Assembly: GCA_963663545.1 (NCBI GenBank)
Contig: OY760505.1
Span: 1,477,937 to 1,541,936, forward strand
Direction of reading: 5' to 3'
From: Candidatus Delongbacteria bacterium
GTDB lineage: Bacteria; CAIWAD01
Length of the DNA: 64,000 nucleotides
How positions within the stretch are numbered: the stretch's first letter is position 1; each line of letters begins with the position of its first letter. Below, one piece after another: positions 1 through 33,927 of the stretch. Both the position numbers and the translations under genes were made by a program. The notes below the pieces were generated by a model that was given only the letters and a program-made list of their open reading frames with translations, was not told where the DNA came from and searched no databases.

Positions 1-1305
1 CTCGGGACTGTGACAATGGGCACAGCTCTCGCTCGGATTCGCAAGGGTTTCCAGCGCAGCGCCCTCTGACTTCACGTGAGCACTTCCCGGCCCGTGACAC
101 GCTTCGCACTGCACGTTGTACAATTGCGGTGTATCACGGCGATTGATATATCCTGATTCGACCATATAGCCCGTGACACAGCGGCGCAGCGCGCTCTCAT
201 CATCAGATCTGCGGTCGCGAATCAAGTCGCTGAATGCACGAGCGTGCAGCGTCGACTTGTAAGCCTGATGCACTTCACGATGGCAGTTGCGGCATTCGCT
301 TTCACCGACAAAGGTGTACTTGCTGTCGTGCCACGGCAGAGTGCGCTCATCCAGATTCAGCTCGGATAGGCGCTCCTGGCGGTTGCGCTCAATCTCACGC
401 TTCTTCTCACGCTCCTGCTCACCCTTGAAGTCTTCCATCATCTGGGCAACTTCAGGATTACGCGGCATGTCGTGATCCAGCTTGATCAGCACGAATTTGC
501 TGTCAACGATCCGTTTTTCCCTGTTCAACAACAACTCGAAGCGCGCTATGTGACGGCCACGATCACCGCAATTGCCGACGTAGGTCTCGCCTACGCGACG
601 CGAAGTGTTCCAGGGATTCGCCACTCCTCCCAACATGACCACGTCAACCTCAGGAACCCGGCTGATGAGGTCTTCAGGAGTACGATTGCTGGTATGAGCC
701 AACATGACCAAGACATCGCACTTGCGACGGAATCGACGGACCGCTTCCTCCAGGTCGTCGGTAACACGGCTACTGTCCATGCCGTTGGACGGGTAAGTCG
801 GATCAGCCCAGGTGAAGACGCCGACCTTGATTCCGTCGACCTTGTGCACAGAGAAATCACGCACGGTCTTGGGAACAACGCCCTGTCTATAATTAGAACC
901 GACCCAGTCGAAGTTGGAGCGCTTGATCATCGGAGTAAGAACCGAATCCGGTAGCATGACGTCCTTGGGACCAAGCCCGATGACGTCATAATCCTGACGA
1001 TTCATAATGTCGATGATAAAACCCGCCTCGCGATCCTGTTCTTCGCCCCGCTTCATACTGTGCAGGTTACCCGCGTCAAGCAACATCATGTGCTTGCCGA
1101 ACATGGCACGCAAAGAGTCCACAACGTAAGTACGCCGGGCAAGACCGCCCAGCTTCTTGTTGTGTCAACCACAATCCTCGAGATAGCCCTTGCAATCGGA
1201 AGTAAACACCAAAGCCAGATCATAGCTGTCGCGCGAAGGCGTACAACTCGTCAGGCTTAGCAGCAGGGCTATCAGGGCAAGCAATCCAAGCAGCGTATTG
1301 CGCAT
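1..1305 (-). CDS. Lipoprotein with a degenerate 5'-nucleotidase/metallophosphoesterase-like N-domain fused to a multiheme cytochrome c; paralog of the next gene. The C-terminus runs off the window, and there is an in-frame TGA at 1165-1167 (possible pseudogene or Sec recoding).
   Basis: Hand translation of the reverse strand starts at ATG 1303-1305 (MRNTLLGLLALIALLLSLTSC, lipobox LTSC) with an AAGGAG RBS upstream. It is homologous throughout to ORF 1515..2891 and carries CRNCH, CEACH and CAHCH heme motifs. The reading frame is continuous except for the TGA at 1165-1167. Confidence 0.6.
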
Positions 1306-1365
1306 GTTGCCCTCATCTCCTTAAAACACTATGCCGAAGTACTCTTCGGCGCCAACACGTCATTC

Positions 1366-1377
1366 ATCCATATGGAT
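1366..1377. promoter_or_regulatory. 12-bp perfect palindrome ATCCATATGGAT upstream of the first cytochrome-lipoprotein gene
   Basis: The palindrome lies about 60 nt upstream of start codon 1305. A GCCGAAG-tact-CTTCGGC hairpin at 1333-1350 lies in the 5'UTR. Confidence 0.35.
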
Positions 1378-1514
1378 ATGGATAAGACTCGGAATATACG
1401 CCAATCACAAAGCAGACACAAGCGAATTCTCATACAGTATTTCGCGTTACACCGAAGAGGTTAACGCTGCGAGGAAAACAACGAGCATCACTCCAATCTG
1501 CTTCGTAATATCAG

Positions 1515-2891
1515 CTACTTACTAAGCATCGACAGTGGGGGAACGCGATGCAAGCCAGCGTCCAAATCTCCATCGACAGTAAATGCGTTAACGTCGTGAC
1601 ATGTTCCGCAGGATTGCCAGGGATCGGCCAAGGTCCCCGTCTCTCCACCATTAGCGTCTACGTGAGCACTTCCCGGGCCATGGCAAGCCTCACATTGGAC
1701 GTTGTAAAGCCAGCTGGAACTGCGATCCACATAGCCGCCACGTACCAGGTAGCCCGTGACACAGCGGCGAAGCTCTGATGGGTTTTCCTCTTCTCCTGAT
1801 CGTAATAGGGCCGCGTAAGCTGTAGCATGGGGAGTTGCTTCGAATGCCGCATAGATACCGGCGTGACACTCCTTGCAGGCACGGGCTCCCAGAAAGAAGT
1901 GCTTCGCGTCATGATAGAGCAAGGCTGTCTCATCCAAATCCAGCTCAGTCAGGATCTGCTGCCGTTTTGCTTCTTGCGCCTCGCGACGCTGAACTCGCAC
2001 CTCTTGTTTGAATTCGCGAATACGTCGGGCCGTCACGGAATCCTCAGGAAGACCCGGCTCCACGGGAATCAGCACGTACTTCGAAGAGCTGATGCGCTTC
2101 TCGCGCGTCAACTCCAACTCGAAACGGCCGATGTACTGGCCGCGATCTCCGCAATTGCCGACCAGCATGCCATCCAGATTAGATTCGCTCATGACCGGAA
2201 AGCCTACACCTCCAAGCAGCACAACGTCTGCGCCCGCCGCCTGCTTCAAGAAGACCTCGGGATGTAACACGTCAGTGTACACGATCAGTACCAACACGTC
2301 GCATTCCCGGCGCACGCGAATGATCTGCTCATGCAGATTTCCCTCAAGGTCGTTGTGGCCAAGCGCGCCGTGTTCCCAATTTGGGTCTATCCAGTTCAAC
2401 ACCGTGATACGTAGGCCGTTGATTCGCTCGTGACACACCTGTTCAACCTGGGAGGGAATTGTATCACGACGATAGTTCGACCCCAGCCAGGGGATTTCCG
2501 ATTGCTTCACCAATGGACGAAGGAGACTGTCTGGAAGTACGGCATCCAGCGGTCCGAGACCGATCAGGCTATATCCCTGCTGCTCAAGAATCCTCTCCAT
2601 CAGCAATGCTGACTGCTGCGCCTCTAGGTCGGTGTTGCTTCCGTGTAGATTGCCAGTATGAATCAGCAGCATCTCTTCGCCCATCTCCCGGCGCAGACTA
2701 TCCAGGATATAGCTGTGTCGCGCCAGGCCGCCCAGTTTGCCGCTATCGAAATCGCAGCTTTCCAGATATCCCTTGCTGTCGGAACTGAACGCCACAACGA
2801 GCCTGTATGAATCCGGTGTATCACGACATCCCGATAGAACAGCGGCAATCAGCCCGAGCAGGATCAGCGAGAGATGCGCCGTACGCTTCAT
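1515..2891 (-). CDS. Lipoprotein with a pseudo-5'-nucleotidase (UshA-like metallophosphatase fold whose metal ligands are lost) N-domain and a C-terminal tri-heme cytochrome c domain.
   Basis: 458 aa with signal peptide plus lipobox LSGC. It aligns to the ushA-like ORF 32470..33927, but D-x-H is replaced by D-x-K, GD by GN and GNHE by GLGP. It has three CxxCH motifs (CKECH, CEACH, CGTCH). Confidence 0.7.
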   Translation of the reverse strand: MKRTAHLSLILLGLIAAVLSGCRDTPDSYRLVVAFSSDSKGYLESCDFDSGKLGGLARHSYILDSLRREMGEEMLLIHTGNLHGSNTDLEAQQSALLMERILEQQGYSLIGLGPLDAVLPDSLLRPLVKQSEIPWLGSNYRRDTIPSQVEQVCHERINGLRITVLNWIDPNWEHGALGHNDLEGNLHEQIIRVRRECDVLVLIVYTDVLHPEVFLKQAAGADVVLLGGVGFPVMSESNLDGMLVGNCGDRGQYIGRFELELTREKRISSSKYVLIPVEPGLPEDSVTARRIREFKQEVRVQRREAQEAKRQQILTELDLDETALLYHDAKHFFLGARACKECHAGIYAAFEATPHATAYAALLRSGEEENPSELRRCVTGYLVRGGYVDRSSSWLYNVQCEACHGPGSAHVDANGGETGTLADPWQSCGTCHDVNAFTVDGDLDAGLHRVPPLSMLSK

Positions 2892-3553
2892 TCGTCCTCC
2901 AAGGCAGACGATTGTGATCCGCCTTCGTCACGCATATCGCACAGCAGAGCGATGAACTCACTCAGCACGTTGGCGGTCATTCCCCAGACAGTAGCTCCTG
3001 GAAGGTCAAAATCCCAACCGGGAGTAATGGGAAACCACGGCTCTACCGGCTCGCCCGCAACTTGCCGGAAAATGCGCGAATAGCGCCGCCTGTTGGCACA
3101 CTTGGCCAACTCAGCCAAGCTCGGCAGCAGAACTTCATCCGTTTCTTCTGTCAGAATGTGTGGCCGCAGGTCACTGGCTAACAGGCCCGCTACCGGAGTG
3201 ACCAGGTTCTGTGATACAGGCACCCATTGATCACTCAGCATCCCGAGTAGCTCCACATCCTTCGGCGGAATCCCTAGTTCCTCCTGCGCTTCGCGAAGAG
3301 CAATGGCCACAGCGTCGCCATCGCCTTCTTCTTCACGCCCACCGGGAAGTGCGATCTGCCCCGGATGGTGTTCCAAGGCGGCTCCGCGGCGCACCAGCCA
3401 AAGATGTAACACGCCATTTGTATCAAACTGAAAGGGAAGCAACACAGCTGCACGATGCGCGCCTTCAATACTGAGGCGCCTGGATTGGTGCTCAGTAAAG
3501 AGTGCACGTAGCCAGTCGGCATCGACACGCTCCGGCAAACGCAGCCCTACCAA
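2888..3553 (-). CDS. NUDIX hydrolase, CoA pyrophosphatase (NudL)-like
   Basis: NUDIX box LPGGREEEGDGDAVAIALREAQEELG. The stop and start overlap the downstream cytochrome gene by 4 nt (ATGA). Confidence 0.7.
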   Translation of the reverse strand: MVGLRLPERVDADWLRALFTEHQSRRLSIEGAHRAAVLLPFQFDTNGVLHLWLVRRGAALEHHPGQIALPGGREEEGDGDAVAIALREAQEELGIPPKDVELLGMLSDQWVPVSQNLVTPVAGLLASDLRPHILTEETDEVLLPSLAELAKCANRRRYSRIFRQVAGEPVEPWFPITPGWDFDLPGATVWGMTANVLSEFIALLCDMRDEGGSQSSALEDE

Positions 3554-15486: not shown

Positions 15487-16958
15487 GGTGCCTCTCGATC
15501 TTGCTCAGCCATCCAGCCCATGACCTTGTTCACAATCTGGTCTCGCAGCTGCTGCGCTTGCCGATTTCCAGCAAAAGGACCTTGCAGCACAAGAGAAATG
15601 ACGGCTACGGGCGTTTCGTCCCTGACAATATAGCCAGCAAGACTTCTAAGCCCACGCAAAGAGCCACTCTTTGCGAGAAGATCGTAGCCCGTGGTTCTCG
15701 AGATATCACAGCTGTGAAGTGTTCCTTCAACTCCGGCTCGAGGTAGAAGTACAAGCGGGAAGCCGCCGCTTTCGATGGATTCAAGAATGTCACACATCAA
15801 CGCACAGTGAAGGCGGTTGTAACGCGACATTCCCGATCCGTCCACAACGACAAAATCGCTCGTGATACAAAGGCTATCGCGTACCCACGCTTGTACAATC
15901 TCGCTGGATCTCTCCCATGAACCCACGCCATCTCGCATCGCAGATAGCTCAAGAAAGATGTTGTCTGCAGCCAAATTCCAACTGTTTGTCAGACAAGTGT
16001 CGACGATATTCGACAGCGGAGGGCTGTACAATGATAATGTGTCCATGAACTGGAATCTGTGATACACGGGATTCAGGGTTGGCAACTCACTGCAGATTCC
16101 GGCAGAATCAAGACTCTGTTGCAACAGGTTCACAAACAAGATCTCGGGTTGTGATACATTGGCAAATGGTGTTACAAAGTCGCCCCAGAACCTTTCCTGC
16201 CTGGAGGAACACCGCCAGCTCTTCTCACCCGATACCACCAGAAAGCGCTCAATGCCTTCCCGCCAATCCCGCATCAAACGCGGTCGGTAAATTCCGGTGA
16301 GAAATCTGTGCTCGACGGTGTAGGCATTACACGCATTTAAGAGCAGCGGCGAGTCTCCATACAGCAACAAGCAGTTCCCGTCAATCGTGGAAGCCGAAGG
16401 ACGTGCAGCCCAGGCCCCGTCGCCGTCGTCCCACATCCATCCAGGACCTAACCCGAGACCCAAGTACCGACCGTAACACAACTCAACACCTGCTGATAGA
16501 GTATCGATGTTTCTTGAGTCCAGCCTAGCAATCAGACTGTCCAAACCACGATGCGTAAGCGTGGGATCCCCACCAGGCATGACATGCAGCGGCGTCATTA
16601 GCGCGCATCTTCCGTCGGAAAGCGTATCACAGCTAGCCTCGGCGAAGGCGAGCATCGTCGTAAAGCAATAGTCAGACGTGAGCAGATCAAGAGCAGCAGC
16701 GCATGTAATCAGCTTCTGCGTACTGGCAGGAGCACATCGAATCAATGCGTTATGTGAAACAATGGTTCGATTTGTCGCCGGTGCAAAACGGGGTAGCCAG
16801 CGCACTTCCATACATAGCATCACGCTATCAGGAACAAGCTCCAGGCAATGCTCCGATAATGTCGGTGTGATACAATTCTCTTGCAGACCCCTGTCTCGTG
16901 ACATCGCCCACAGGTGTGTCACAGCAAGCAACACAAGCAGTATCCGGAGCATCGACAT
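15483..16958 (-). CDS. dacB: D-alanyl-D-alanine carboxypeptidase/endopeptidase, PBP4 family (peptidase S13)
   Basis: SxxK active site PASTQKL, DGSGMSRYN motif, signal peptide. Confidence 0.7.
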   Translation of the reverse strand: MSMLRILLVLLAVTHLWAMSRDRGLQENCITPTLSEHCLELVPDSVMLCMEVRWLPRFAPATNRTIVSHNALIRCAPASTQKLITCAAALDLLTSDYCFTTMLAFAEASCDTLSDGRCALMTPLHVMPGGDPTLTHRGLDSLIARLDSRNIDTLSAGVELCYGRYLGLGLGPGWMWDDGDGAWAARPSASTIDGNCLLLYGDSPLLLNACNAYTVEHRFLTGIYRPRLMRDWREGIERFLVVSGEKSWRCSSRQERFWGDFVTPFANVSQPEILFVNLLQQSLDSAGICSELPTLNPVYHRFQFMDTLSLYSPPLSNIVDTCLTNSWNLAADNIFLELSAMRDGVGSWERSSEIVQAWVRDSLCITSDFVVVDGSGMSRYNRLHCALMCDILESIESGGFPLVLLPRAGVEGTLHSCDISRTTGYDLLAKSGSLRGLRSLAGYIVRDETPVAVISLVLQGPFAGNRQAQQLRDQIVNKVMGWMAEQDREAP

Positions 16959-18577: not shown

Positions 18578-20731
18578 TTACTTGACCAACACCATTTTGT
18601 GCAGGCTTGTGTACTCGCCAGCATGAATGCGATAGAAGTACATACCACTGGCCAGTGCGCTGGCATCCATCACTACCTCGTAGCGACCAGCTGCCTGGTT
18701 CTGATTGACCAGAGTAAGAACCTCAGCACCCAGCACATTGTAGACCTTCAGGCTTACATCGCTTGCCGTGGGCAGCGTGTAGGCAATGGTTGTCGTCGGG
18801 TTGAAGGGGTTCGGATAGTTCTGCTCAAGGCTGAACTCGGCAGGAACCGTTGCGTCAGCAACGCCGACACACACCGGTCCATCCACGTAGGTGTACTCGG
18901 AAACGTTGTTATGCACGTCTACAGCGGCGATTTCATATTCAAAGTGGTCGCCGGTATCACATACTAACTCATTCCAATCAGCACTGTGGGTGAAATCGGT
19001 ACTGCTACCTGCGTAGACAACCTCGCCATCACCGGCACCATTCAAACGGGCTCTGACAACGTAGTGATCAAAATCAACCGCGGTGCAGGCATCCCAAGCA
19101 ACATCTGTCAGCAAGTGATCCGGATTCTCGCCGGTTCCCCACAGCTCTTCCCAGGTCGGAGAATAGTCAAACTGTTCAGCTGAAGTGAAGCTCGTGACAG
19201 CAGCAGGTGCCAGGTTGTCAACCGACCAACCCTCGTAAACACCCGAGTAGGCAATCATGGCCATGTAGTGAGTGGTTACGTAGAAGCTGGTGATTCCCGG
19301 GTTGTCCACGTCGACAGAGTCAACAATGGTCGGGACTTGGACGAAATAGTTGTCCATGCCGCCAGTGGCCAGAATGGAGTTCACGAAGACCGGAATCTCG
19401 CCGTCCATGCGCCAAATACCATAGGCACTAATGGGATTGATGGCCGACCCATCATTCGGTGAGGGAGCTACTTCAATATAGACGCAACCACCCTGATCGT
19501 TGGGAATATCATAGACGCCAGCGATCTCGGCGGACAGCAGAACGTTGTGCTGATCAAAGGGCAGGGCGCCGATATCCTTGGGAGTTCCATCGGGATCGTC
19601 GTCAACCGAAATGATGGACACGTCGATCAGGCAGCTGATCTCTTCGGGATCCTCAACACTCCAGAAGGAGATGTTGTAGTCATGATTCTCGCGATCAACA
19701 AATCCCGGGTCGCAAGTGTAGGCAACAGCACCGGGATCCAAACCGTCTAGCGGATAGAAAGCCGAATACTGCATCGTGGAAATTTCGTCATCCACGGATA
19801 CGAAGCTACCATAGGCAAAGAGGGTGTAGTATCCACCAACGGCACAGCCTGTGGCGATGTAGGCATTCTGGCCTTCGCCATCGGCGGTATTGTCGACAAA
19901 GGTGCAGGAATGCATCATGGCCGTGCCGCCAATGACATTGATTCCACCACCATTACCCGTGGTGTGGTTGTCGTACACCAAGCAGTAGCGCATAATGACA
20001 TGATTGGCAACATTCACTGCACTCGCACCTTCTACTCCCGTGATAATCGCGTGGTTGATATAACCATCGCCTGTCTCGGAGAGCTCGATACCCAGCCAGT
20101 CCATGCCGCCGAAGTGGACTTTGGAGTCCATCTCGCCGTTGACTTCGATATCACCATTCACAATGATCTTGTAAGCGCCAGTAGAATAGACGTGGATACC
20201 GGGATCGATAACCAGAGTCTCGCCTTCGGGAACGATGAAGTCTTCTGTCAAAGCGACCTCGCCGTCAACAATGGCCGGGTTGTCCCATGTCCACTCATAT
20301 CCATAGCTCACCGGTACGCAGCCATCTCCGGGGGGGACCTCAACTGTCGGACCGGGCATGGGGATACCATCTACGTACCAGAAGGTCTCGGGCTCAAAAG
20401 TCCCGACCATGTGATACGCAAAACCAGGTCCCTCGAAATCAACGGTGAGCGAATCGAAATAGAAAAAGGACATAGCGTTATCCTGAGCCAACTTGAACCG
20501 GAACACCGGGGGATAGCCACCAATACCAATGTACTCGGCATCGTAGACCGCAGTGACTCCCGTTAGGTACTGACTGAGATAGGCGGTTGATGTCACCGGT
20601 GCACATGTCTCACCGTTCCAACACTCAACACCTGTCTCCATTCCATCGACAGGTACGTACCATAGGACTTCAGCGCTGGCAACGCTAAAGCCTATCAAGG
20701 CCGCACAAAGGATTCCAAGGATCTTCTTCAT
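18578..20731 (-). CDS. T9SS-secreted protein with a parallel beta-helix domain and a type-A C-terminal sorting domain
   Basis: Signal peptide, beta-helix repeats (NHTTGNGGGINVIGG...), and a C-terminal NYPNPFNPTTTI...YFYR Por secretion tail. Confidence 0.75.
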   Translation of the reverse strand: MKKILGILCAALIGFSVASAEVLWYVPVDGMETGVECWNGETCAPVTSTAYLSQYLTGVTAVYDAEYIGIGGYPPVFRFKLAQDNAMSFFYFDSLTVDFEGPGFAYHMVGTFEPETFWYVDGIPMPGPTVEVPPGDGCVPVSYGYEWTWDNPAIVDGEVALTEDFIVPEGETLVIDPGIHVYSTGAYKIIVNGDIEVNGEMDSKVHFGGMDWLGIELSETGDGYINHAIITGVEGASAVNVANHVIMRYCLVYDNHTTGNGGGINVIGGTAMMHSCTFVDNTADGEGQNAYIATGCAVGGYYTLFAYGSFVSVDDEISTMQYSAFYPLDGLDPGAVAYTCDPGFVDRENHDYNISFWSVEDPEEISCLIDVSIISVDDDPDGTPKDIGALPFDQHNVLLSAEIAGVYDIPNDQGGCVYIEVAPSPNDGSAINPISAYGIWRMDGEIPVFVNSILATGGMDNYFVQVPTIVDSVDVDNPGITSFYVTTHYMAMIAYSGVYEGWSVDNLAPAAVTSFTSAEQFDYSPTWEELWGTGENPDHLLTDVAWDACTAVDFDHYVVRARLNGAGDGEVVYAGSSTDFTHSADWNELVCDTGDHFEYEIAAVDVHNNVSEYTYVDGPVCVGVADATVPAEFSLEQNYPNPFNPTTTIAYTLPTASDVSLKVYNVLGAEVLTLVNQNQAAGRYEVVMDASALASGMYFYRIHAGEYTSLHKMVLVK

Positions 20732-20763
20732 GTTTGTCTCCAATACTCCGATGTCTTGCTGTT

Positions 20764-21336
20764 TCAACGCACAGGCAGGGGTTTCCAGTCGCTGAAGCTC
20801 ACCATATCGCCGTTGACACTGTTAAACCCTGGCTGGCATTCCCATAGCTGTGAATCAGTGTAATACGTCGCCAATTCTGGATCATCGTTGTTGAATACAC
20901 GGACAATCACATTCTCCCAGACCTGAACCCGGTTATCCGTGGGCACTGTTTTCTCCATGCGAACCGTAGCCAAGATATCAATCAGGCCTGGCATCGAATT
21001 GAGATAGCTCTTGTGCCGTCCCGTGTTGTAGAACTCATTACGTTCTTGGACGACGTCGTCGCCATCTGTGGCAAAAGGCAAATCCACCTCGCCATTCACG
21101 ATAATGAGTTCAAGATAGCGACCCGTCAAGGGAGCACCGGTCTCCGGGTCGTTTAGGTAGATCTCCCCGAACTGGCACAGACCATCAAATCCCGGCGAAG
21201 ATTTTGGTGTGCTGACAGCGACCTCTTCGGCTTGCTCACCAACTTCCGGTGCTTTCGTCTCCTGACAAAAGCAAAAGGACGCCAACGCCAAGCTTGCCAT
21301 GAGGAACGCTGCTGAGAATTTGTTTTGCGGACTCAT
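20764..21336 (-). CDS. Hypothetical secreted protein
   Basis: ORF with a signal peptide (MSPQNKFSAAFLMASLALASF); its stop lies 4 nt from the start of the downstream gene. Confidence 0.5.
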   Translation of the reverse strand: MSPQNKFSAAFLMASLALASFCFCQETKAPEVGEQAEEVAVSTPKSSPGFDGLCQFGEIYLNDPETGAPLTGRYLELIIVNGEVDLPFATDGDDVVQERNEFYNTGRHKSYLNSMPGLIDILATVRMEKTVPTDNRVQVWENVIVRVFNNDDPELATYYTDSQLWECQPGFNSVNGDMVSFSDWKPLPVR

Positions 21337-27917: not shown

Positions 27918-28745
27918 TCAGCACCTGCGCAACACTTCCACAACAAGCGTCCGGAACACGCCACGTGCTCTTTCCGCTACTTCGGTGACTTCGCTGTGAT
28001 CCAACTGCTGGGCTGAAATTCCGGCAGCGTAGTTTGTAACACAACTGATCGGAACGGCGCACAAGCCGATATGACGTGCAGCAATCAGCTCCGGAATTGT
28101 GCTCATACCGACGATGTCTGCACCGATCCTGCCAAGCGTTCGGATCTCGGCAGGCGTTTCGTAGCTGGGACCCGTGACTCCACCCATTACCCCAACACGT
28201 AATGGAGTGGCCAGGTCACGAGCTGCATCCCGCACAATGGATGCCATTTCAGAACAAACAGAGGCAGACATATCAGGGAAACGAGGGCCCATTTCTGGAT
28301 CGTTGGGACCGCGCAGCGGATTACGAAACATGAGATTGATCTGATCCTCGACGAGCACCAGATCACCTGGGTGATACAAACGATTGATTGATCCGACAGC
28401 GTTTGTAAGTAACAGGTGTGTCACTCCCAACGCGGCCATCAACCGAACGGGGAACACGACCTGCTCCTGACTGTAGCCCTCATAGCCGTGTACTCGACCC
28501 TTAAGCGCCAACACAGGAACACCATCCAGCTCCCCCGCCACCAGACGCCCGGCATGGCCAACAACTGTCGAAGGTGGAAATCCCGGGATCTCTTCAGTAG
28601 CGACATCCCGGGCCGAAGTCATTCCATCCACCAGCACACCAAGACCGCTGCCAAGCACAATTCCACGCTGCGGGATTTCGCCCAGTCGATCGCGCACCCA
28701 CTTAGCAGCCTGTGTCACATTCTCCGGAAGACGTACCGAGGTCAT
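27918..28745 (-). CDS. punA: Purine nucleoside phosphorylase (PNP/MTAP family)
   Basis: GSGLG phosphate-binding motif, VGMSTIPE, PNP family fold. Confidence 0.8.
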   Translation of the reverse strand: MTSVRLPENVTQAAKWVRDRLGEIPQRGIVLGSGLGVLVDGMTSARDVATEEIPGFPPSTVVGHAGRLVAGELDGVPVLALKGRVHGYEGYSQEQVVFPVRLMAALGVTHLLLTNAVGSINRLYHPGDLVLVEDQINLMFRNPLRGPNDPEMGPRFPDMSASVCSEMASIVRDAARDLATPLRVGVMGGVTGPSYETPAEIRTLGRIGADIVGMSTIPELIAARHIGLCAVPISCVTNYAAGISAQQLDHSEVTEVAERARGVFRTLVVEVLRRC

Positions 28746-28757
28746 TCCTACTCCGTG

Positions 28758-30059
28758 TTACAAAACAAGGCCAGCAACGCAGGCTGTCAACCAACTGGCA
28801 ATGGCACCACCGAACATGGCCTTGAGGCCTAGACGGGCCAGATCGCCTCGTCGCTCGGGAGCCAGAGCAGAGATTCCACCGATCTGGATACCGATGGAGC
28901 TGAAATTGGCGAAGCCGCAGAGGGCGTAGGTAGCAATGATCTGAGCGCGCTCAGAAATCACGCCATTGTGGATATACTCAGCCAGCGTCGCGTAGCCGAC
29001 GAACTCGTTCACTGCCAACTTGATTCCCAACAGATTTCCTACGTGCGTGGCATCATGCAGCGGCACACCCATAATGAAGGCCAACGGGGACAACAGCGTG
29101 CCAAACAAGGTGCGCAGACTACCCGGGAACCACCCTGCGTACTCACCCGATTCCTGTAACACGCCACCCAGCATTTTGCCGTCGATCAGGTGATCCACGC
29201 CACCAAGCACCCAGTCCACCATGGCAATCAACGCAATGAAGGAAACCAGCATGGCGCCGACGTTTACAGCCAGCTTGAGACCATCTGTGGTTCCGCGCGC
29301 AGCCGCATCCACCAGATTGTCACCGGAATCGATGTCCGGCAGTTCAATAACGCCTGCCGTAGCCGACTTTTCGGTTTCGGGATAAATGATCTTACCCACA
29401 ACCAGCGCGGCCGGAGCAGACATCACTGAAGCCACAACCAGGTGTCCAGCACTGACGCCCATGCCGATGTAACCCGCCAGCACACCGCCAGCAACTGTAG
29501 CAAAGCCGCCAACCATCACGGTAAGCAACTCACTATTGGTCATTTTGGAAAGGAAGGGCTTAATCAACAGCGGGGCTTCTGTCTGGCCGACAAAGATATT
29601 GGCCGAGACGGAAAGCGTCTCAGATCCGCTGGTACCCAAGGCTTTCTGCATCACGCGGGCAAGGAATTTGATGACGTGCTGCATCACGCCAGCGTAATAC
29701 ATGATGGACATGAAAGCCGAAAAGAAAATGATGGTAGGCAGCACCTTGAAGGCAAACTGGTAGCCAAATCCTGGCCAGAACTTACCATCAGTGAAGTAGT
29801 GGGCAGGGTCGGCAAGATTGCCAAAGAGAAAGCTGGCACCTTTGTCCGACAGGGACAGGAAAGAGGCAACGAAGTCGGCAAACCATCGGAAAGCAATTTT
29901 CCCGGGTTCCCAGTACAGCAACAGAAAACCCAGCACAAGCTGGATGCTGATACCCACGACGACGGTGCGAACATTGATCTTGCGCTTGTTGTTGGACATG
30001 AGGAAGGCAATACCCAGCAGTACAAGCATGCCAACCAGGCTCATCAATCTTTCCATCAC
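28758..30059 (-). CDS. nupC: Concentrative nucleoside transporter NupC family
   Basis: 433 aa multi-TM protein with conserved CNT blocks. Confidence 0.8.
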   Translation of the reverse strand: MMERLMSLVGMLVLLGIAFLMSNNKRKINVRTVVVGISIQLVLGFLLLYWEPGKIAFRWFADFVASFLSLSDKGASFLFGNLADPAHYFTDGKFWPGFGYQFAFKVLPTIIFFSAFMSIMYYAGVMQHVIKFLARVMQKALGTSGSETLSVSANIFVGQTEAPLLIKPFLSKMTNSELLTVMVGGFATVAGGVLAGYIGMGVSAGHLVVASVMSAPAALVVGKIIYPETEKSATAGVIELPDIDSGDNLVDAAARGTTDGLKLAVNVGAMLVSFIALIAMVDWVLGGVDHLIDGKMLGGVLQESGEYAGWFPGSLRTLFGTLLSPLAFIMGVPLHDATHVGNLLGIKLAVNEFVGYATLAEYIHNGVISERAQIIATYALCGFANFSSIGIQIGGISALAPERRGDLARLGLKAMFGGAIASWLTACVAGLVL

Positions 30060-30686
30060 TTACCTCTGGCTTTGCTCTGAAGGTGATTCAGTTCTCTGTG
30101 ACACAAACAGACCTAGTTGTTCTTCGCGGGGAACCACGAAGCAACTACGGCAGCGCGCCTCGTACACATCGCGGGCGCCAAGCAGCACCTGCTCGTCATC
30201 CAGTGTGAGACGCTGGGAGAAATTAGCTGGCTGGCCGCAGACGACACAGATGGCCATATTTTTAGTGACAAACTCAGCTACCGCCATCAAATCAGGCATG
30301 GGGGGAAAGGGTTTGCCACGAAAATCTTTATCTAACCCGGCAACAATCACACGCCGCCCCTCACGGGCCAGCTTCTCGCATACGGCCACGATACCAGCAT
30401 CAAAAAACTGCACTTCGTCAATGGCAACAACATTCTCGTCGCCCAGCCGCTTCAGAATGGCATCGGATGACTTGACCGTGACACAGGGGATGCTCTGATC
30501 GTTGTGTGATACAACTTCGGTCTTGCTGTAGCGTGTATCGACTGTTGGCTTGAATACGATGACTTCTTTCCGGGCGATGCGCGCCAGTCGCAGTCGACGG
30601 ATCAACTCCTCCGTCTTGCCGGAATACATGGAACCGCAAATGACTTCAATCCAGCCGTTGCCCGGGTGCATGATGCTTGCTGGCAT
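30060..30686 (-). CDS. tdk: Thymidine kinase
   Basis: P-loop GSMYSGKTEEL and C-terminal Zn-ribbon cysteines (CVVCG...CRSC). Confidence 0.85.
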   Translation of the reverse strand: MPASIMHPGNGWIEVICGSMYSGKTEELIRRLRLARIARKEVIVFKPTVDTRYSKTEVVSHNDQSIPCVTVKSSDAILKRLGDENVVAIDEVQFFDAGIVAVCEKLAREGRRVIVAGLDKDFRGKPFPPMPDLMAVAEFVTKNMAICVVCGQPANFSQRLTLDDEQVLLGARDVYEARCRSCFVVPREEQLGLFVSQRTESPSEQSQR

Positions 30687-30694
30687 GGGCCTCC

Positions 30695-31339
30695 TCAAGC
30701 CTTGTCCAGGCTGCGAAGCAGCGAGGCAATCTTGGTCTGCAACAAATCGACGGCCACCAGATTGCGACCGCCTTGGGGAATGATGATGTCCGCGAAACGC
30801 TTTGTTGGCTCGATGAACTGCATGTGCATCGGTCGCACCACCTGCTCATACTGGTCGATGACGCTGTCCAGACTGCGGCCGCGCTCCTTTACGTCACGGC
30901 GCAAACGACGAATAAAGCGCACGTCACTGTCCGTGTCGACAAAAACCATGATATCCATCATGTCGCGCAGTTCGGGCGAGTGTAACACAAGAATGCCTTC
31001 GAGAATCACAACCAAGTGGTTCTCTAGTAACACGCACTTGTCTTTGCTGCGTGCATGTTCCACATAGTCGTAAACAGGCATCTCGATGGATTCACCGCGA
31101 AGAAGACACGCCATGTGTTCCAACAGGAGTTCGTGATCGAATGCGTCGGGGTGATCGTAGTTGACGCGTTTGCGCTCGTCCAGACTTAGCTCCCAGTTGG
31201 CGCGATAGTAGCTATCCTGCTCCACCACAACCACACGGTCACTACCCAGGCGCTCAACCAGTGTGCGTGCCACAAGGGTTTTACCGGATCCCGATCCGCC
31301 CGCAATTCCTATCAGGATTGGTTTGACGCTTTTGCTCAT
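30695..31339 (-). CDS. udk: Uridine kinase
   Basis: P-loop IGIAGGSGSGKT and the uridine kinase fold. Confidence 0.85.
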   Translation of the reverse strand: MSKSVKPILIGIAGGSGSGKTLVARTLVERLGSDRVVVVEQDSYYRANWELSLDERKRVNYDHPDAFDHELLLEHMACLLRGESIEMPVYDYVEHARSKDKCVLLENHLVVILEGILVLHSPELRDMMDIMVFVDTDSDVRFIRRLRRDVKERGRSLDSVIDQYEQVVRPMHMQFIEPTKRFADIIIPQGGRNLVAVDLLQTKIASLLRSLDKA

Positions 31340-31740
31340 CGCTTTTCCAGGTACTCCGGGCTGAATCCATAGGGCAGGAGTCCCCCAATCGTCTCTTCGC
31401 GTACTTCCTGGCCGTTGCCCATGACGACCAGCAATTCAGGCGCATAGTCGTACAGGAGCTGTCGACAAGCACCACAGGGTGGAACCGCAGACGGCCCTTC
31501 GGCGACAACGGCTATTGTATCAAACTCACTCTCGCCTGCTGCAAGGGCAGTGAAGAGCGCAACTCGTTCGGCACAGCACGACAGGCCGTATGAGCTGGAC
31601 TCTACATTGCTTCCCGTAAATACCCGACCCGACTTCGTGTGTAGCGCCGCGCCCACGGCGAACTTGCTATAGCGACAATTCGCGCGTTCGCGGGCTTCCC
31701 AGGCCGCTTCAAGCAGAACCTTGTGATCAGCTGTAGACAT
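31336..31740 (-). CDS. cdd: Cytidine deaminase
   Basis: Zinc motifs CAERVA and PCGACRQ. Confidence 0.85.
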   Translation of the reverse strand: MSTADHKVLLEAAWEARERANCRYSKFAVGAALHTKSGRVFTGSNVESSSYGLSCCAERVALFTALAAGESEFDTIAVVAEGPSAVPPCGACRQLLYDYAPELLVVMGNGQEVREETIGGLLPYGFSPEYLEKR

Positions 31741-31912
31741 CGCACTTCTCCAGGAGAGCTACCGGCACCCAGACAGTCTGAATGCGAGTACACGCAGTGT
31801 TTCCGGACCCGCAGGGCAATAGACCGACAAGCACCCAGCTCCTCTGGAATGCCGATCAATGGCCACTCCGGCGTTTACCCGGAACCCAAGAGTGTAACAA
31901 ATGGCGAGGGGG

Positions 31913-32482
31913 CTATTCCTCAGCTTCGGCAAAGACCTGGGCTTCAAAGACGCGAAAAGCGCACTCCGGGCCCGTCCAGGCATCTGCGGGTAGACCTGCT
32001 TTGCGACACAAATGATGAAGCATCTGTTCGCGCGTCCAGCCCTGCTCCGGAGCTACTTGCGGCAGAAAGACCGCACTCCGTCCGCGCAAGGAAAGTATCA
32101 CGCCGTGACGTCCTATTTCGATTCTGTGGAAGCTCTCCACATCTTGGGGTTCGCTCAGCACACTGATCTCAACTGTGCACTGTTCCCACTCATCAGGCTT
32201 AATACCGGGAAAACGCGGATCATCAAAAGCGGCTGCAATTGCCATACGCTGCAGTGTTCGCCCCAGGGGTAACGCGGCCTCAATCATACCGATGCAGCCC
32301 CGCAAATATCCAGCCTTCTGCAGTGTCACAAAAGCGCCACAGGGATTGGCAAAAACGCCCTCAGCGGGAACGTCCGGCGGATCCTGCTGGTGCAGCGCAC
32401 TGGTGATGAGTTGCCGCACGTAGGTAAGGGCACGACGCTGCTCTTCGTGATTCAACATGAAGCCGCTCCTTATGGATTCCAA
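31913..32482 (-). CDS. AMMECR1-domain protein (AmmeMemoRadiSam system protein A family)
   Basis: GCIG motif (LRGCIGMIEA) and typical AMMECR1 length. It overlaps the ushA-like gene by 13 nt. Confidence 0.7.
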   Translation of the reverse strand: MESIRSGFMLNHEEQRRALTYVRQLITSALHQQDPPDVPAEGVFANPCGAFVTLQKAGYLRGCIGMIEAALPLGRTLQRMAIAAAFDDPRFPGIKPDEWEQCTVEISVLSEPQDVESFHRIEIGRHGVILSLRGRSAVFLPQVAPEQGWTREQMLHHLCRKAGLPADAWTGPECAFRVFEAQVFAEAEE

Positions 32483-33927
32483 CGTCCGTCTATGGATGAC
32501 ACGGCCTCAGGGTTCTGACGCAAAGCTTGTATCACAATATCCCGATCAATCCGGCCACTGTGTATCACGGAATGCTCGCGCGCCTGCAACCAGGGAAAGG
32601 CCGACACCTTGCTCCATACGTAGTCGGAAATGGCAACCCTATAGAGCTGGTCTTCTTTCATTGCCCCTTCCGGCAGGTCGAAGCCGACAAGTGCGTGATC
32701 ATCATTAAATCGAGCTCGCATACCGTCAAACTGCAGAAACTCGAACTCACCACGTAGGATGGCTTGGTAAGTTTCCAGCAGTTCACTTCCGCTCAACTCC
32801 ACCAACAGCATCTCATTGCCGAAGGGCGCAATCTCCCAAGCATCCCGCAGCGTTATTGGACCCGCCATCAGGTCTTTGCGAATGCCTCCCGAATTCCATA
32901 AAGCAAGGTCGGTGTTCAATTGATTGCGGACTTGCGCGGTCAGCCAATTGCCAATGTTGGACTCACCAGCGAAAACGCGCACCCAGTCTGAATGCAGCGT
33001 CCCGATTTGTTCGCCAAGAAGCTCCTCTACACGCATTTCCTGCCGTGATACAAACGCCGCCATTTCCGCATTAGGTTCGGCCAATGATGTCTCTAGCGGC
33101 AACAATCCACCACGGAATTCCACCAAACCAATTCCTGGCTCAACAATAAGTGTATCAACGCCCACGTGATACAATTGTGCACCCGTCTGCACGATCCATG
33201 TTTGTGCCACCTGCGCCGGTGGATGTATCACGGTATGCGAATGTCCGCCAATGATCAGATCAAAACCGGGCGTTGTTGCCGCCAACAGCGAATCGGCAAA
33301 CCAACCACGATGCGAAAGGGCAATGCGCAGATCGGCCTGACCGTCCGTCTCCTCTAACCACTGTGCCGCCACTTCAAAGGAGTTCATGACATGCACGCCG
33401 TGAGTGGCAGCATCGCTGCATAGGCCGTGCAAATCGTCGGGAACCAGCCCCAGCACCAGAATCTCGACCCCCTCGCGCTGCATGTGCATTTCGCGCTGGA
33501 AGGGAAAGCCACCATCATCACGCTGAAGGTTGGCCGCCAGCAGCGGTAGTCCGCTCGCTTTCGCCAAGCTATCCAGGCGGGTAAACCCGTAGTCGAATTC
33601 GTGATTGCCCACACAGATGGCATCCGGTGCGAGCCGTCTCATGACCTCAATGCAACCTTCACCGCGCGTCAAGGTGCTGATAGGCGTGCCCTGAAAAAAA
33701 TCTCCAGCGTCCAGGTAGAGCACGGCATCCTCGTGCTGTGTGCGCATTTCGACCAGCAGACCGTCAAGAACCGGTGCCCCGCCCAATTCGAGGCGACCTT
33801 CTCCATAACGCGCCTGGCGCGGCGCAAACCAACTGTGTATGTCATTTGTGTGCACAAGATAAATCGCCCGTGGTGTGGCCAGAACCTGTGTCGCCAGCAG
33901 GAATAAGCTCAGGATTGAAACCCGCAT
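32470..33927 (-). CDS. 5'-nucleotidase / bifunctional metallophosphatase (UshA-like), catalytic motifs intact
   Basis: HTNDIHSW, LDAGDFFQGT, GNHEFDYG, GGHSHT; signal peptide. Confidence 0.8.
   Translation of the reverse strand: MRVSILSLFLLATQVLATPRAIYLVHTNDIHSWFAPRQARYGEGRLELGGAPVLDGLLVEMRTQHEDAVLYLDAGDFFQGTPISTLTRGEGCIEVMRRLAPDAICVGNHEFDYGFTRLDSLAKASGLPLLAANLQRDDGGFPFQREMHMQREGVEILVLGLVPDDLHGLCSDAATHGVHVMNSFEVAAQWLEETDGQADLRIALSHRGWFADSLLAATTPGFDLIIGGHSHTVIHPPAQVAQTWIVQTGAQLYHVGVDTLIVEPGIGLVEFRGGLLPLETSLAEPNAEMAAFVSRQEMRVEELLGEQIGTLHSDWVRVFAGESNIGNWLTAQVRNQLNTDLALWNSGGIRKDLMAGPITLRDAWEIAPFGNEMLLVELSGSELLETYQAILRGEFEFLQFDGMRARFNDDHALVGFDLPEGAMKEDQLYRVAISDYVWSKVSAFPWLQAREHSVIHSGRIDRDIVIQALRQNPEAVSSIDGRWNP

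Follow-up and report, generated by a model that had tools for sequence, protein, structure and literature searches.

A diverged, triheme variant of the UshA-like (seleno)protein family and a paralogue without selenocysteine in Candidatus Delongbacteria

The UshA-like CxU proteins have been catalogued as a selenoprotein family since 2008; they were reported in the Global Ocean Sampling selenoproteome as "COG0737, UshA-like, CxU", with 76 selenocysteine (Sec) and 92 Cys sequences (PMC2398784), and they appear again in reviews of 2022 and 2026 (PMC9312934, PMC13188914). In NCBIfam the family is represented by NF041198 (UshA_like_PCGU, "UshA-like (seleno)protein"), a model of 519 positions that spans a nucleotidase-like and a cytochrome half. 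No function has been assigned to it, either in NF041198 or in the selenoproteome literature (PMC2398784, PMC9312934, PMC13188914). A second described system that invites comparison is MccSep/ExtKL (GSU2937-2936; PDB 9wt8/9wt9), a multiheme selenoprotein polysulfide reductase that handles polysulfide and selenite, and in which a Cys ligates heme 2 and the Sec lies nearby (bioRxiv 10.1101/2025.11.18.688581). Here we examine a pair of tandem genes at the start of a 64,000-nucleotide stretch of Candidatus Delongbacteria DNA (contig OY760505.1, the whole stretch being referred to as the window). This locus is a diverged, sub-threshold, triheme variant of the known selenoprotein family, accompanied by a paralogue that lacks Sec. 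The two genes and the elements central to this assignment are as follows.

1515..2891, minus strand: gene 1, a complete open reading frame of 458 residues, with three hemes and C46-D-F48 instead of CGU or CGC
2826..2891, minus strand: gene 1 signal peptide and lipobox, ending AAVLSG before the lipobox C, read from the sequence
1..1305, minus strand: gene 2, a predicted Sec-containing lipoprotein of the UshA-like (seleno)protein kind, with 435 of its 487 codons inside the window
1243..1305, minus strand: gene 2 signal peptide and lipobox, MRNTLLGLLALIALLLSLTS before the lipobox C (LTS-C), read from the sequence
1165..1173, minus strand: predicted Cys45-Gly46-Sec47 motif of gene 2, its TGA aligned with the second Cys of the family PCGC motif
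1120..1164, minus strand: candidate bacterial selenocysteine insertion sequence (SECIS), a 45-nt stem-loop directly after the UGA, from RNA folding

The window cuts gene 2 short, leaving out the final 52 codons; its C-terminus was taken from an independent assembly of the same locus that is 99.9% identical (L087). The two genes are tandem paralogues, 43% identical to one another (BLASTP E 1e-132). An initial annotation, made from the letters of the window, had described them as two tandem lipoproteins with three CxxCH heme sites each, one of them joined to a NUDIX gene by an ATGA overlap. All of this is confirmed, with both genes on the minus strand and lipoboxes reading LSG-C in gene 1 and LTS-C in gene 2.

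The relationship to the described family was measured with the NF041198 profile. The clipped window copy of gene 2 matches both halves of the profile with 204.8 bits (E 2.1e-60), its full-length orthologue in a related species (L001) reaches 223.2 bits and gene 1 reaches 147.8 bits. All three fall short of the curated equivalog cut-off of 275 bits, though every E-value is 4e-43 or lower, the lowest being 5e-66; judged by these scores, homology to NF041198 is clear and equivalog status is not reached. The UshA-type N-domain and the C-terminal c554-like multiheme domain that define the family are both present, the latter with three CxxCH sites. Gene 2 also carries the CxU shortly ahead of GGLARR (DCG-TGA-HNKKLGGLARR), whereas gene 1 has neither CxU nor CxC and reads SCDFDSGKLGGLARH at this point. 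The locus thus shares with NF041198 a signal peptide, a degenerate UshA-type N-domain, a Cys-Gly-Sec/Cys motif before GGLARR, a linker helix and a c554-like C-domain. It differs in that the motif of gene 2 is DCGU rather than PCGU, in that, of the four heme sites, the second is missing from the window subclade, and in that gene 1 has lost the Sec and second Cys.

The family is large. A profile search of 1.84 billion representative sequences returned 4,465 clusters at E<=1e-30, and the best 150 of these matches all cover both domains. Members are spread over Acidobacteriota, Myxococcota, Desulfobacterota, Planctomycetota, Krumholzibacteriota and marine metagenomes. In five of them (P0047, P0055, P0056, P0088, P0120) the UshA-like and cytochrome unit forms the C-terminus of a protein of 1,000-1,200 residues, behind 600-800 N-terminal residues. 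The initial annotation did not recognise the fusion as a described architecture, and allowed that this view would fall if the fusion proved to be a common annotated family with known function. The view is not borne out: the fusion is NF041198, a common annotated family of about 4,465 clusters, although the other half of that proviso does not hold, the function of the family being not known.

Gene 1 is open throughout. Read with the standard code, gene 2 has no continuous frame: its codon 47 (1167..1165) is an in-frame TGA, unmentioned in the initial annotation, in the context YLEDCG-TGA-HNKKLGGLARR. More distant homologues read ...LEPCGCxxxxxGGLARR... at the same site. In an alignment of 139 representatives and gene 2, in which 121 sequences cover the CGC columns, both Cys columns hold Cys in 119 of the 121 and the intervening Gly is Gly in 111. 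The same TGA is found in L087, in a related species (L001/L002), in distant lineages (L003-L005) and in 25 more loci of reference genomes belonging to other species. Counted as distinct downstream sequences over the window and all fetched loci, there are 31 TGA forms and 22 Cys forms, and the replacement of the Cys of the latter by TGA in the former at the same codon is a Sec/Cys signature.

The sequence on either side of this codon is well conserved. The window and L001 copies of gene 2 have diverged by 22.5% at the DNA level, yet before and after the TGA alike their proteins are 84% identical; 71 of 435 residues differ and the TGA is kept. Furthermore, the maximum 12-residue hydropathy is 3.18 in the signal region of gene 2, as against 0.62 beyond the first Met that follows the TGA. 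Readthrough of the TGA is favoured by this arrangement, because heme attachment needs export and the signal peptide lies only upstream. From these observations we infer that UGA codon 47 is decoded as selenocysteine in this organism, presumably aided by the stem-loop behind it. No convincing further case of a gene interrupted by TGA emerged when the window was scanned.

The nucleotide sequence around codon 47 is constrained beyond its coding role. An 80-nt block around the TGA (1197..1118) contains a single mismatch to L001, compared with 22.5% divergence gene-wide, and is the most conserved block of its kind in gene 2. Among codons whose amino acid is unchanged, silent changes occur in 2 of 27 within the block and in 45% across the gene (P 2.5e-5). 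The candidate SECIS falls within this block, its upper stem (1153..1134) pairing GCUGGGCG with UGCCCGGC under an apical GUCU loop, and both its position and its shape match expectation for a bacterial SECIS. Hairpin loops beginning with G occur in 24 of the 31 Sec forms and 10 of the 22 Cys forms, a weak excess (P 0.018). Rfam has no matching model near the gene 2 TGA. The SECIS assignment is putative, and rests on the frozen silent sites, the position of the element and the weak excess of G-first loops. A separate observation concerns the family as a whole: the GGLARR(A) codons form a stable hairpin in Cys forms (L021-L080) and Sec forms (L003-L071) alike, within the 60 nt that follow the Cys/Sec codon. 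Such a ready-made stem-loop might ease switching from Cys to Sec within the family.

The N-terminal halves of both proteins, together with the helix that follows them in gene 1, were delimited as follows.

2040..2810, minus strand: gene 1 N-domain, residues 28-284, from the secondary structure of an AlphaFold2 (AF2) model
2039..1944, minus strand: gene 1 long linker helix, residues 285-316
457..1227, minus strand: gene 2 N-domain, approximately residues 27-283, borders moved by eye from the gene 1 model with a one-residue shift

Against the PDB, the family profile matches the Thermus 5'-nucleotidase 2z1a (E 3.5e-37), SoxB (E 2e-29) and UshA (E 1e-27), as well as CD73 and YfkN; the solved 5'-nucleotidases cover only profile positions about 28-315. 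The AF2 model of gene 1 (pLDDT 90.2, pTM 0.84) aligns in Foldseek with UshA 1hp1 over about 330 columns that include the linker helix (E 8.6e-19), and with CD73 at E about 1e-18. Pfam finds no N-domain match in either gene, Metallophos included, and a direct BLASTP of gene 1 against the UshA-like gene of the window (32470..33927) is not significant (E 0.17). The 5'-nucleotidase likeness proposed in the initial annotation is upheld by profiles and Foldseek, but not by direct alignment with that gene.

Metallophosphatase motifs were mapped by column through a hidden Markov model of the family and counted over 140 sequences, with the following outcome.

GD motif: GN in gene 1, GN in gene 2
GNHE motif: GPLD in gene 1, GPKD in gene 2; across the family the Asn is hardly ever kept, and the catalytic His occurs in at most a few of the 140
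Motif IV His: Tyr in gene 1, His in gene 2
GHxH motif: GGxG in gene 1, GGxA in gene 2

In the remaining motif, DxH, the window genes retain the Asp and have exchanged the His for Lys. The complete set of dimetal ligands and catalytic His (DxH, GD, GNH, H, GHxH) is thus absent from both proteins. The initial annotation had every metal-ligand motif lost; this is accurate for GD, GNHE and GHxH, while the Asp of DxH remains. Some acidic positions persist more widely, with an acidic residue at the Glu of GNHE (motif III) in 139 of 140 sequences, Asp or Asn in motif II in 101 of 140, and the motif I Asp in about half of those aligned. The only near-invariant motif of the N-domain is Cys-Gly-Cys/Sec. 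Read from these residues, the N-domain is predicted to be catalytically dead as a phosphoesterase, and the earlier proposal of a phosphoesterase-dead domain fused to a multiheme cytochrome c is supported.

Compared with genuine 5'-nucleotidases (UshA, CD73, 2z1a and the UshA-like gene of the window), the proteins retain the calcineurin-type N-domain, the long linker helix and the GG-x-AR helix start. They differ in lacking the dimetal ligands and catalytic His, in the exchange of the C-domain for a cytochrome, and in the insertion of a Cys-Gly-Sec loop after the DxH strand. SoxB (TIGR04486; PDB 2wdc, 4uwq) belongs to the same superfamily, and gene 2 matches its model with E 1.2e-15. SoxB works in the periplasm, where its substrate is a sulfur compound bound to the Cys of a GGCGG arm. 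In contrast to the window proteins, it is a di-manganese hydrolase with its ligands intact, a C-domain of its own and neither hemes nor Sec, and the window proteins are no nearer to it than to ordinary 5'-nucleotidases.

The C-terminal third of each gene gives its sole Pfam match, to PF13435 (Cytochrome_C554), with 36.3 bits for gene 1 (E 1.1e-8) and 36.6 bits for gene 2 (E 8.9e-9) against a cut-off of 20.8.

1518..1904, minus strand: gene 1 c554-like triheme domain, with CKECH at 1877..1863, CEACH at 1694..1680 and CGTCH at 1610..1596
1..321, minus strand: gene 2 c554-like domain, with CRNCH at 294..280, CEACH at 108..94 and CAHCH at 24..10

The C-domain aligns motif for motif with hemes 1-3 of c554 (CSSCH, DCVGCHVDGFG...GGY, VGCESCHGPG), and also with the c554-like modules of OcwA (6i5b). 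It resembles c554 of Nitrosomonas europaea (PDB 1bvb/1ft5) in following hemes 1-3, including the CHGPG signature. It differs in that c554 is a free electron carrier whereas this module is fused, and in that the window subclade has no counterpart of heme 2. Four CxxCH sites are present in 98 of 105 family representatives, and canonical members have three conserved distal His, as c554 does with its five-coordinate heme 2. The second site has been lost from both window genes and from the sequences nearest to them (L001, L006, P0093, P0108), where DCLxCHTTGY has become LRRCVTGY, KYTTGY or KRTVTGY. What remains in this group is three hemes with three candidate distal His, a pattern that would be that of a plain bis-His electron wire.

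Two further observations concern this domain. A lone Cys stands at the old heme-2 site in both window genes and L001 (LRRCV, 175..189 and 1761..1775, minus strand), and other triheme relatives have no Cys there (KYTTGY, KRTVTGY, KRAVTGW). Additionally, two proteins (P0008, P0018) carry the same c554-like module, once or twice, joined to a thioredoxin domain of the TlpA/Redoxin type that has a CPHC motif.

Gene 1 presents a different picture from gene 2 at the Cys-Gly-Sec site. It keeps the first Cys, with Asp-Phe standing for Gly-Sec (C46-D-F48), and is one of only two among the 121 covering sequences with a non-Cys residue at the second Cys position. Gene 1 is 44% identical to gene 2 and to the L001 orthologue and 35-38% identical to other clade members, to which gene 2 is 50-55% identical. 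A neighbour-joining tree puts gene 1 basal, which is where a long branch would be expected to fall. The simplest reading of these sequence comparisons is a duplication within this lineage, followed by faster divergence once the catalytic pair had been lost. Gene 1 probably retains just an electron-transfer or scaffold role.

We consider it rather probable that gene 2 encodes an extracytoplasmic Cys-Sec redox lipoprotein, built on a dead 5'-nucleotidase scaffold and wired by hemes, that acts on a small oxidised substrate. Redox chemistry is pointed to because Cys-Gly-Cys/Sec is the sole near-universal feature of the N-domain. Coupling of a thiol or selenol to hemes is supported by the CPHC fusions and by the precedent of MccSep/ExtKL. 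By 5'-nucleotidase topology, the Cys45-Gly-Sec47 loop, which directly follows the vestigial DxH, would lie in the inter-domain cleft at the entrance to the former active site, facing the C-terminal domain and its hemes. The selenolate would attack the small oxidised substrate, for which our best guess is a chalcogen compound (polysulfide, selenite or a thiosulfonate/disulfide, for example), and the intermediate formed with Cys45 would be a selenenylsulfide or a bridged species. Through its bis-His hemes the cytochrome domain could then re-reduce the Cys-Sec pair with electrons from the periplasmic pool or, if the reaction is oxidative, take electrons away.

MccSep offers a parallel to this mechanism, in that a periplasmic heme chain feeds a site made up of Sec and Cys, with the Sec in a Gly-Sec loop (DGUP in MccSep, CGUH in gene 2). 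The Sec-bearing part of MccSep is Ig-like rather than nucleotidase-like, however, and among the five hemes of the protein the catalytic one is His/Cys-ligated. A marginal sequence match (E 0.019) extends over a single heme motif, and the MccSep/ExtKL model NF040886 gives 10.8 bits against a cut-off of 250 (E 0.13); the comparison is one of functional analogy only. We tentatively suggest, as a possibility that we rate below the redox assignment itself, that the UshA-like CxU proteins may form another class of heme-wired selenoenzymes beside MccSep, to which they bear no structural relation, and may reduce or oxidise a chalcogen compound (polysulfide, selenite, thiosulfate-type) outside the cytoplasm. 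The window version would then be a triheme form without the five-coordinate heme, beside a Sec-less duplicate with a non-catalytic role as relay or partner.

Several points weigh against this proposal. Searches by tblastn with E. coli SelA and SelB and a SelD sequence gave no match in the window or the fetched loci, and no selA, selB, selD or tRNA-Sec is present within either. The folding energy of the hairpin after the Sec/Cys codon does not differ between the 31 Sec and 22 Cys forms (P 0.92). Cys forms fold as stably as Sec forms because the GGLARR codons are self-complementary, and because the two kinds are equally stable, folding energy was discarded as evidence. The family has no characterised member, and both the substrate and the direction of electron flow are guesses. 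The distance from Cys-Sec to heme would follow from 5'-nucleotidase topology only. Among about 50 loci no partner gene recurs across phyla, and synteny is limited to lineage-specific housekeeping genes (LptD-like, HU, RNase T). Finally, the window subclade is without heme 2, the counterpart of the five-coordinate heme of c554; should canonical members use it as their catalytic partner, another mechanism must operate here.

This last point bears directly on the alternative that survives best, in which the Cys/Sec ligates a heme axially or occupies its distal pocket, and catalysis takes place on the heme as in TsdA, SoxAX and MccSep. Canonical members have four CxxCH sites and only three conserved distal His. 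Their second heme aligns with heme 2 of c554, which is said, after work by Iverson et al. in 1998, to be five-coordinate, and in MccSep a Cys ligates heme 2 with the Sec close by. Precisely this heme 2, however, has been lost from the window genes and the sequences closest to them, and gene 2 keeps its strongly conserved CGU alongside three hemes and three candidate distal His. We regard this account as unlikely for the present locus.

Slightly less likely again is a new metal or metalloid site (for example for Cu, Ni, Fe, As or Hg), in which Cys-Gly-Cys/Sec would combine with the surviving acidic residues to make a metalloenzyme, or a metal reductase, wired by hemes. Elsewhere, soft metals are bound by CxC motifs, Sec replaces a metal-ligating Cys in [NiFeSe] hydrogenases and formate dehydrogenases, and the acidic residue of motif III and the Asp/Asn of motif II persist at the frequencies given above (139 and 101 of 140). 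Set against this, no conserved His or third Cys completes such a site, there are no metal-handling genes in the neighbourhood, and gene 1 loses the motif yet keeps the rest of the protein.

The function put forward in the initial annotation, that of a nucleotide- or phosphoester-binding module which senses its ligand and gates electron transfer through the hemes, is probably wrong, and we hold it to be improbable. The fold of the 5'-nucleotidase N-domain is kept, as are the motif III acidic residue in nearly every sequence and the motif I Asp in about half. In UshA and CD73, however, the nucleoside is bound by the C-terminal domain, and Pfam detects no 5_nucleotid_C (PF02872) in gene 1 or gene 2, although the UshA-like gene of the window has it (E 7.5e-18). 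The nucleoside-binding C-domain has been replaced by the cytochrome, which removes the basis for this reading. Residues that handle phosphate and metal (the Asn and His of GNH, the second His of GHxH) are lost family-wide, and the feature that is conserved instead is Cys-Gly-Cys/Sec, Sec being costly and typical of redox catalysis.

Weakest of all is the reading of the TGA as a plain stop, with gene 2 a pseudogene or two genes of 46 and about 420 residues: automated gene callers do split it in this way (into 46- and 421-residue frames in L001, L002 and L087) and the window and fetched loci hold no Sec machinery, but the TGA occupies the codon of an invariant Cys in 31 distinct sequences, purifying selection acts on both flanks across 22% DNA divergence, the downstream part has heme-attachment motifs and no export signal of its own, and the family is curated as a selenoprotein (NF041198), so that we reject a pseudogene and find a genuine stop scarcely credible.

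The immediate surroundings of the two genes add the following features.

2888..3553, minus strand: NUDIX gene, CoA-pyrophosphatase-like, its stop overlapping the gene 1 start (ATGA)
1306..1514, minus strand: intergenic leader of gene 2, the ~150 nt nearest the gene being conserved with the 22%-diverged L001 (9634..9799)

The NUDIX protein matches the CoA pyrophosphatase model PRK10707 with E 2.6e-24, under the cut-off of that model. It is a synteny neighbour, and a functional partnership with gene 1 is not demonstrated. L001 lacks gene 1: a terminator comes after its NUDIX gene, and next come the gene 2 leader and the gene 2 orthologue. The conserved leader is not shared by L006. In the window it holds a terminator-like hairpin (1350..1333, GCCGAAG-AGTA-CTTCGGC) followed by TGTTTT, 28 nt upstream of the gene 2 start codon, which could be a leader or attenuator, or a leftover of the NUDIX terminator. 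In L087 a one-base indel within gene 2 (~16730..16775) breaks up the gene calls; rather than being biological, it probably stems from a homopolymer error in long reads. RelA, NUDIX and phosphoglucomutase genes are broken on that contig too.

Elsewhere in the window, the UshA-like 5'-nucleotidase at 32470..33927 belongs to a same-strand run (27918..33927, minus strand) that resembles a nucleoside-salvage cluster, with an AMMECR1-domain protein, uridine kinase, thymidine kinase, a concentrative nucleoside transporter and a purine/uridine phosphorylase. A protein of 729 residues at 18578..20767 (minus strand) ends in a C-terminal sorting domain for type IX secretion (Por_Secre_tail). The domain points to the FCB (Fibrobacteres-Chlorobi-Bacteroidetes) group, near Krumholzibacteriota/Fibrobacterota, in agreement with the closest relatives of the family gene, which come from metagenome-assembled genomes labelled Krumholzibacteriia and Fibrobacteraceae.

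The wider interest of the locus lies in a large family that has been listed among selenoproteins for almost two decades without a function. Automated annotation usually renders its members as a 46-residue stub and a 'cytochrome c family protein', and an in-frame TGA beside a Cys in an otherwise intact gene deserves flagging. The family illustrates the reuse of a hydrolase scaffold, in which a substrate-binding domain has given way to an electron wire and a metal site to a Cys-Sec pair. Within this family the window holds two natural experiments, a clade that has lost one heme and a duplicate that has lost its Sec. Following the MccSep demonstration of 2025, the UshA-like CxU proteins are an obvious candidate for assays of the polysulfide-reductase type.

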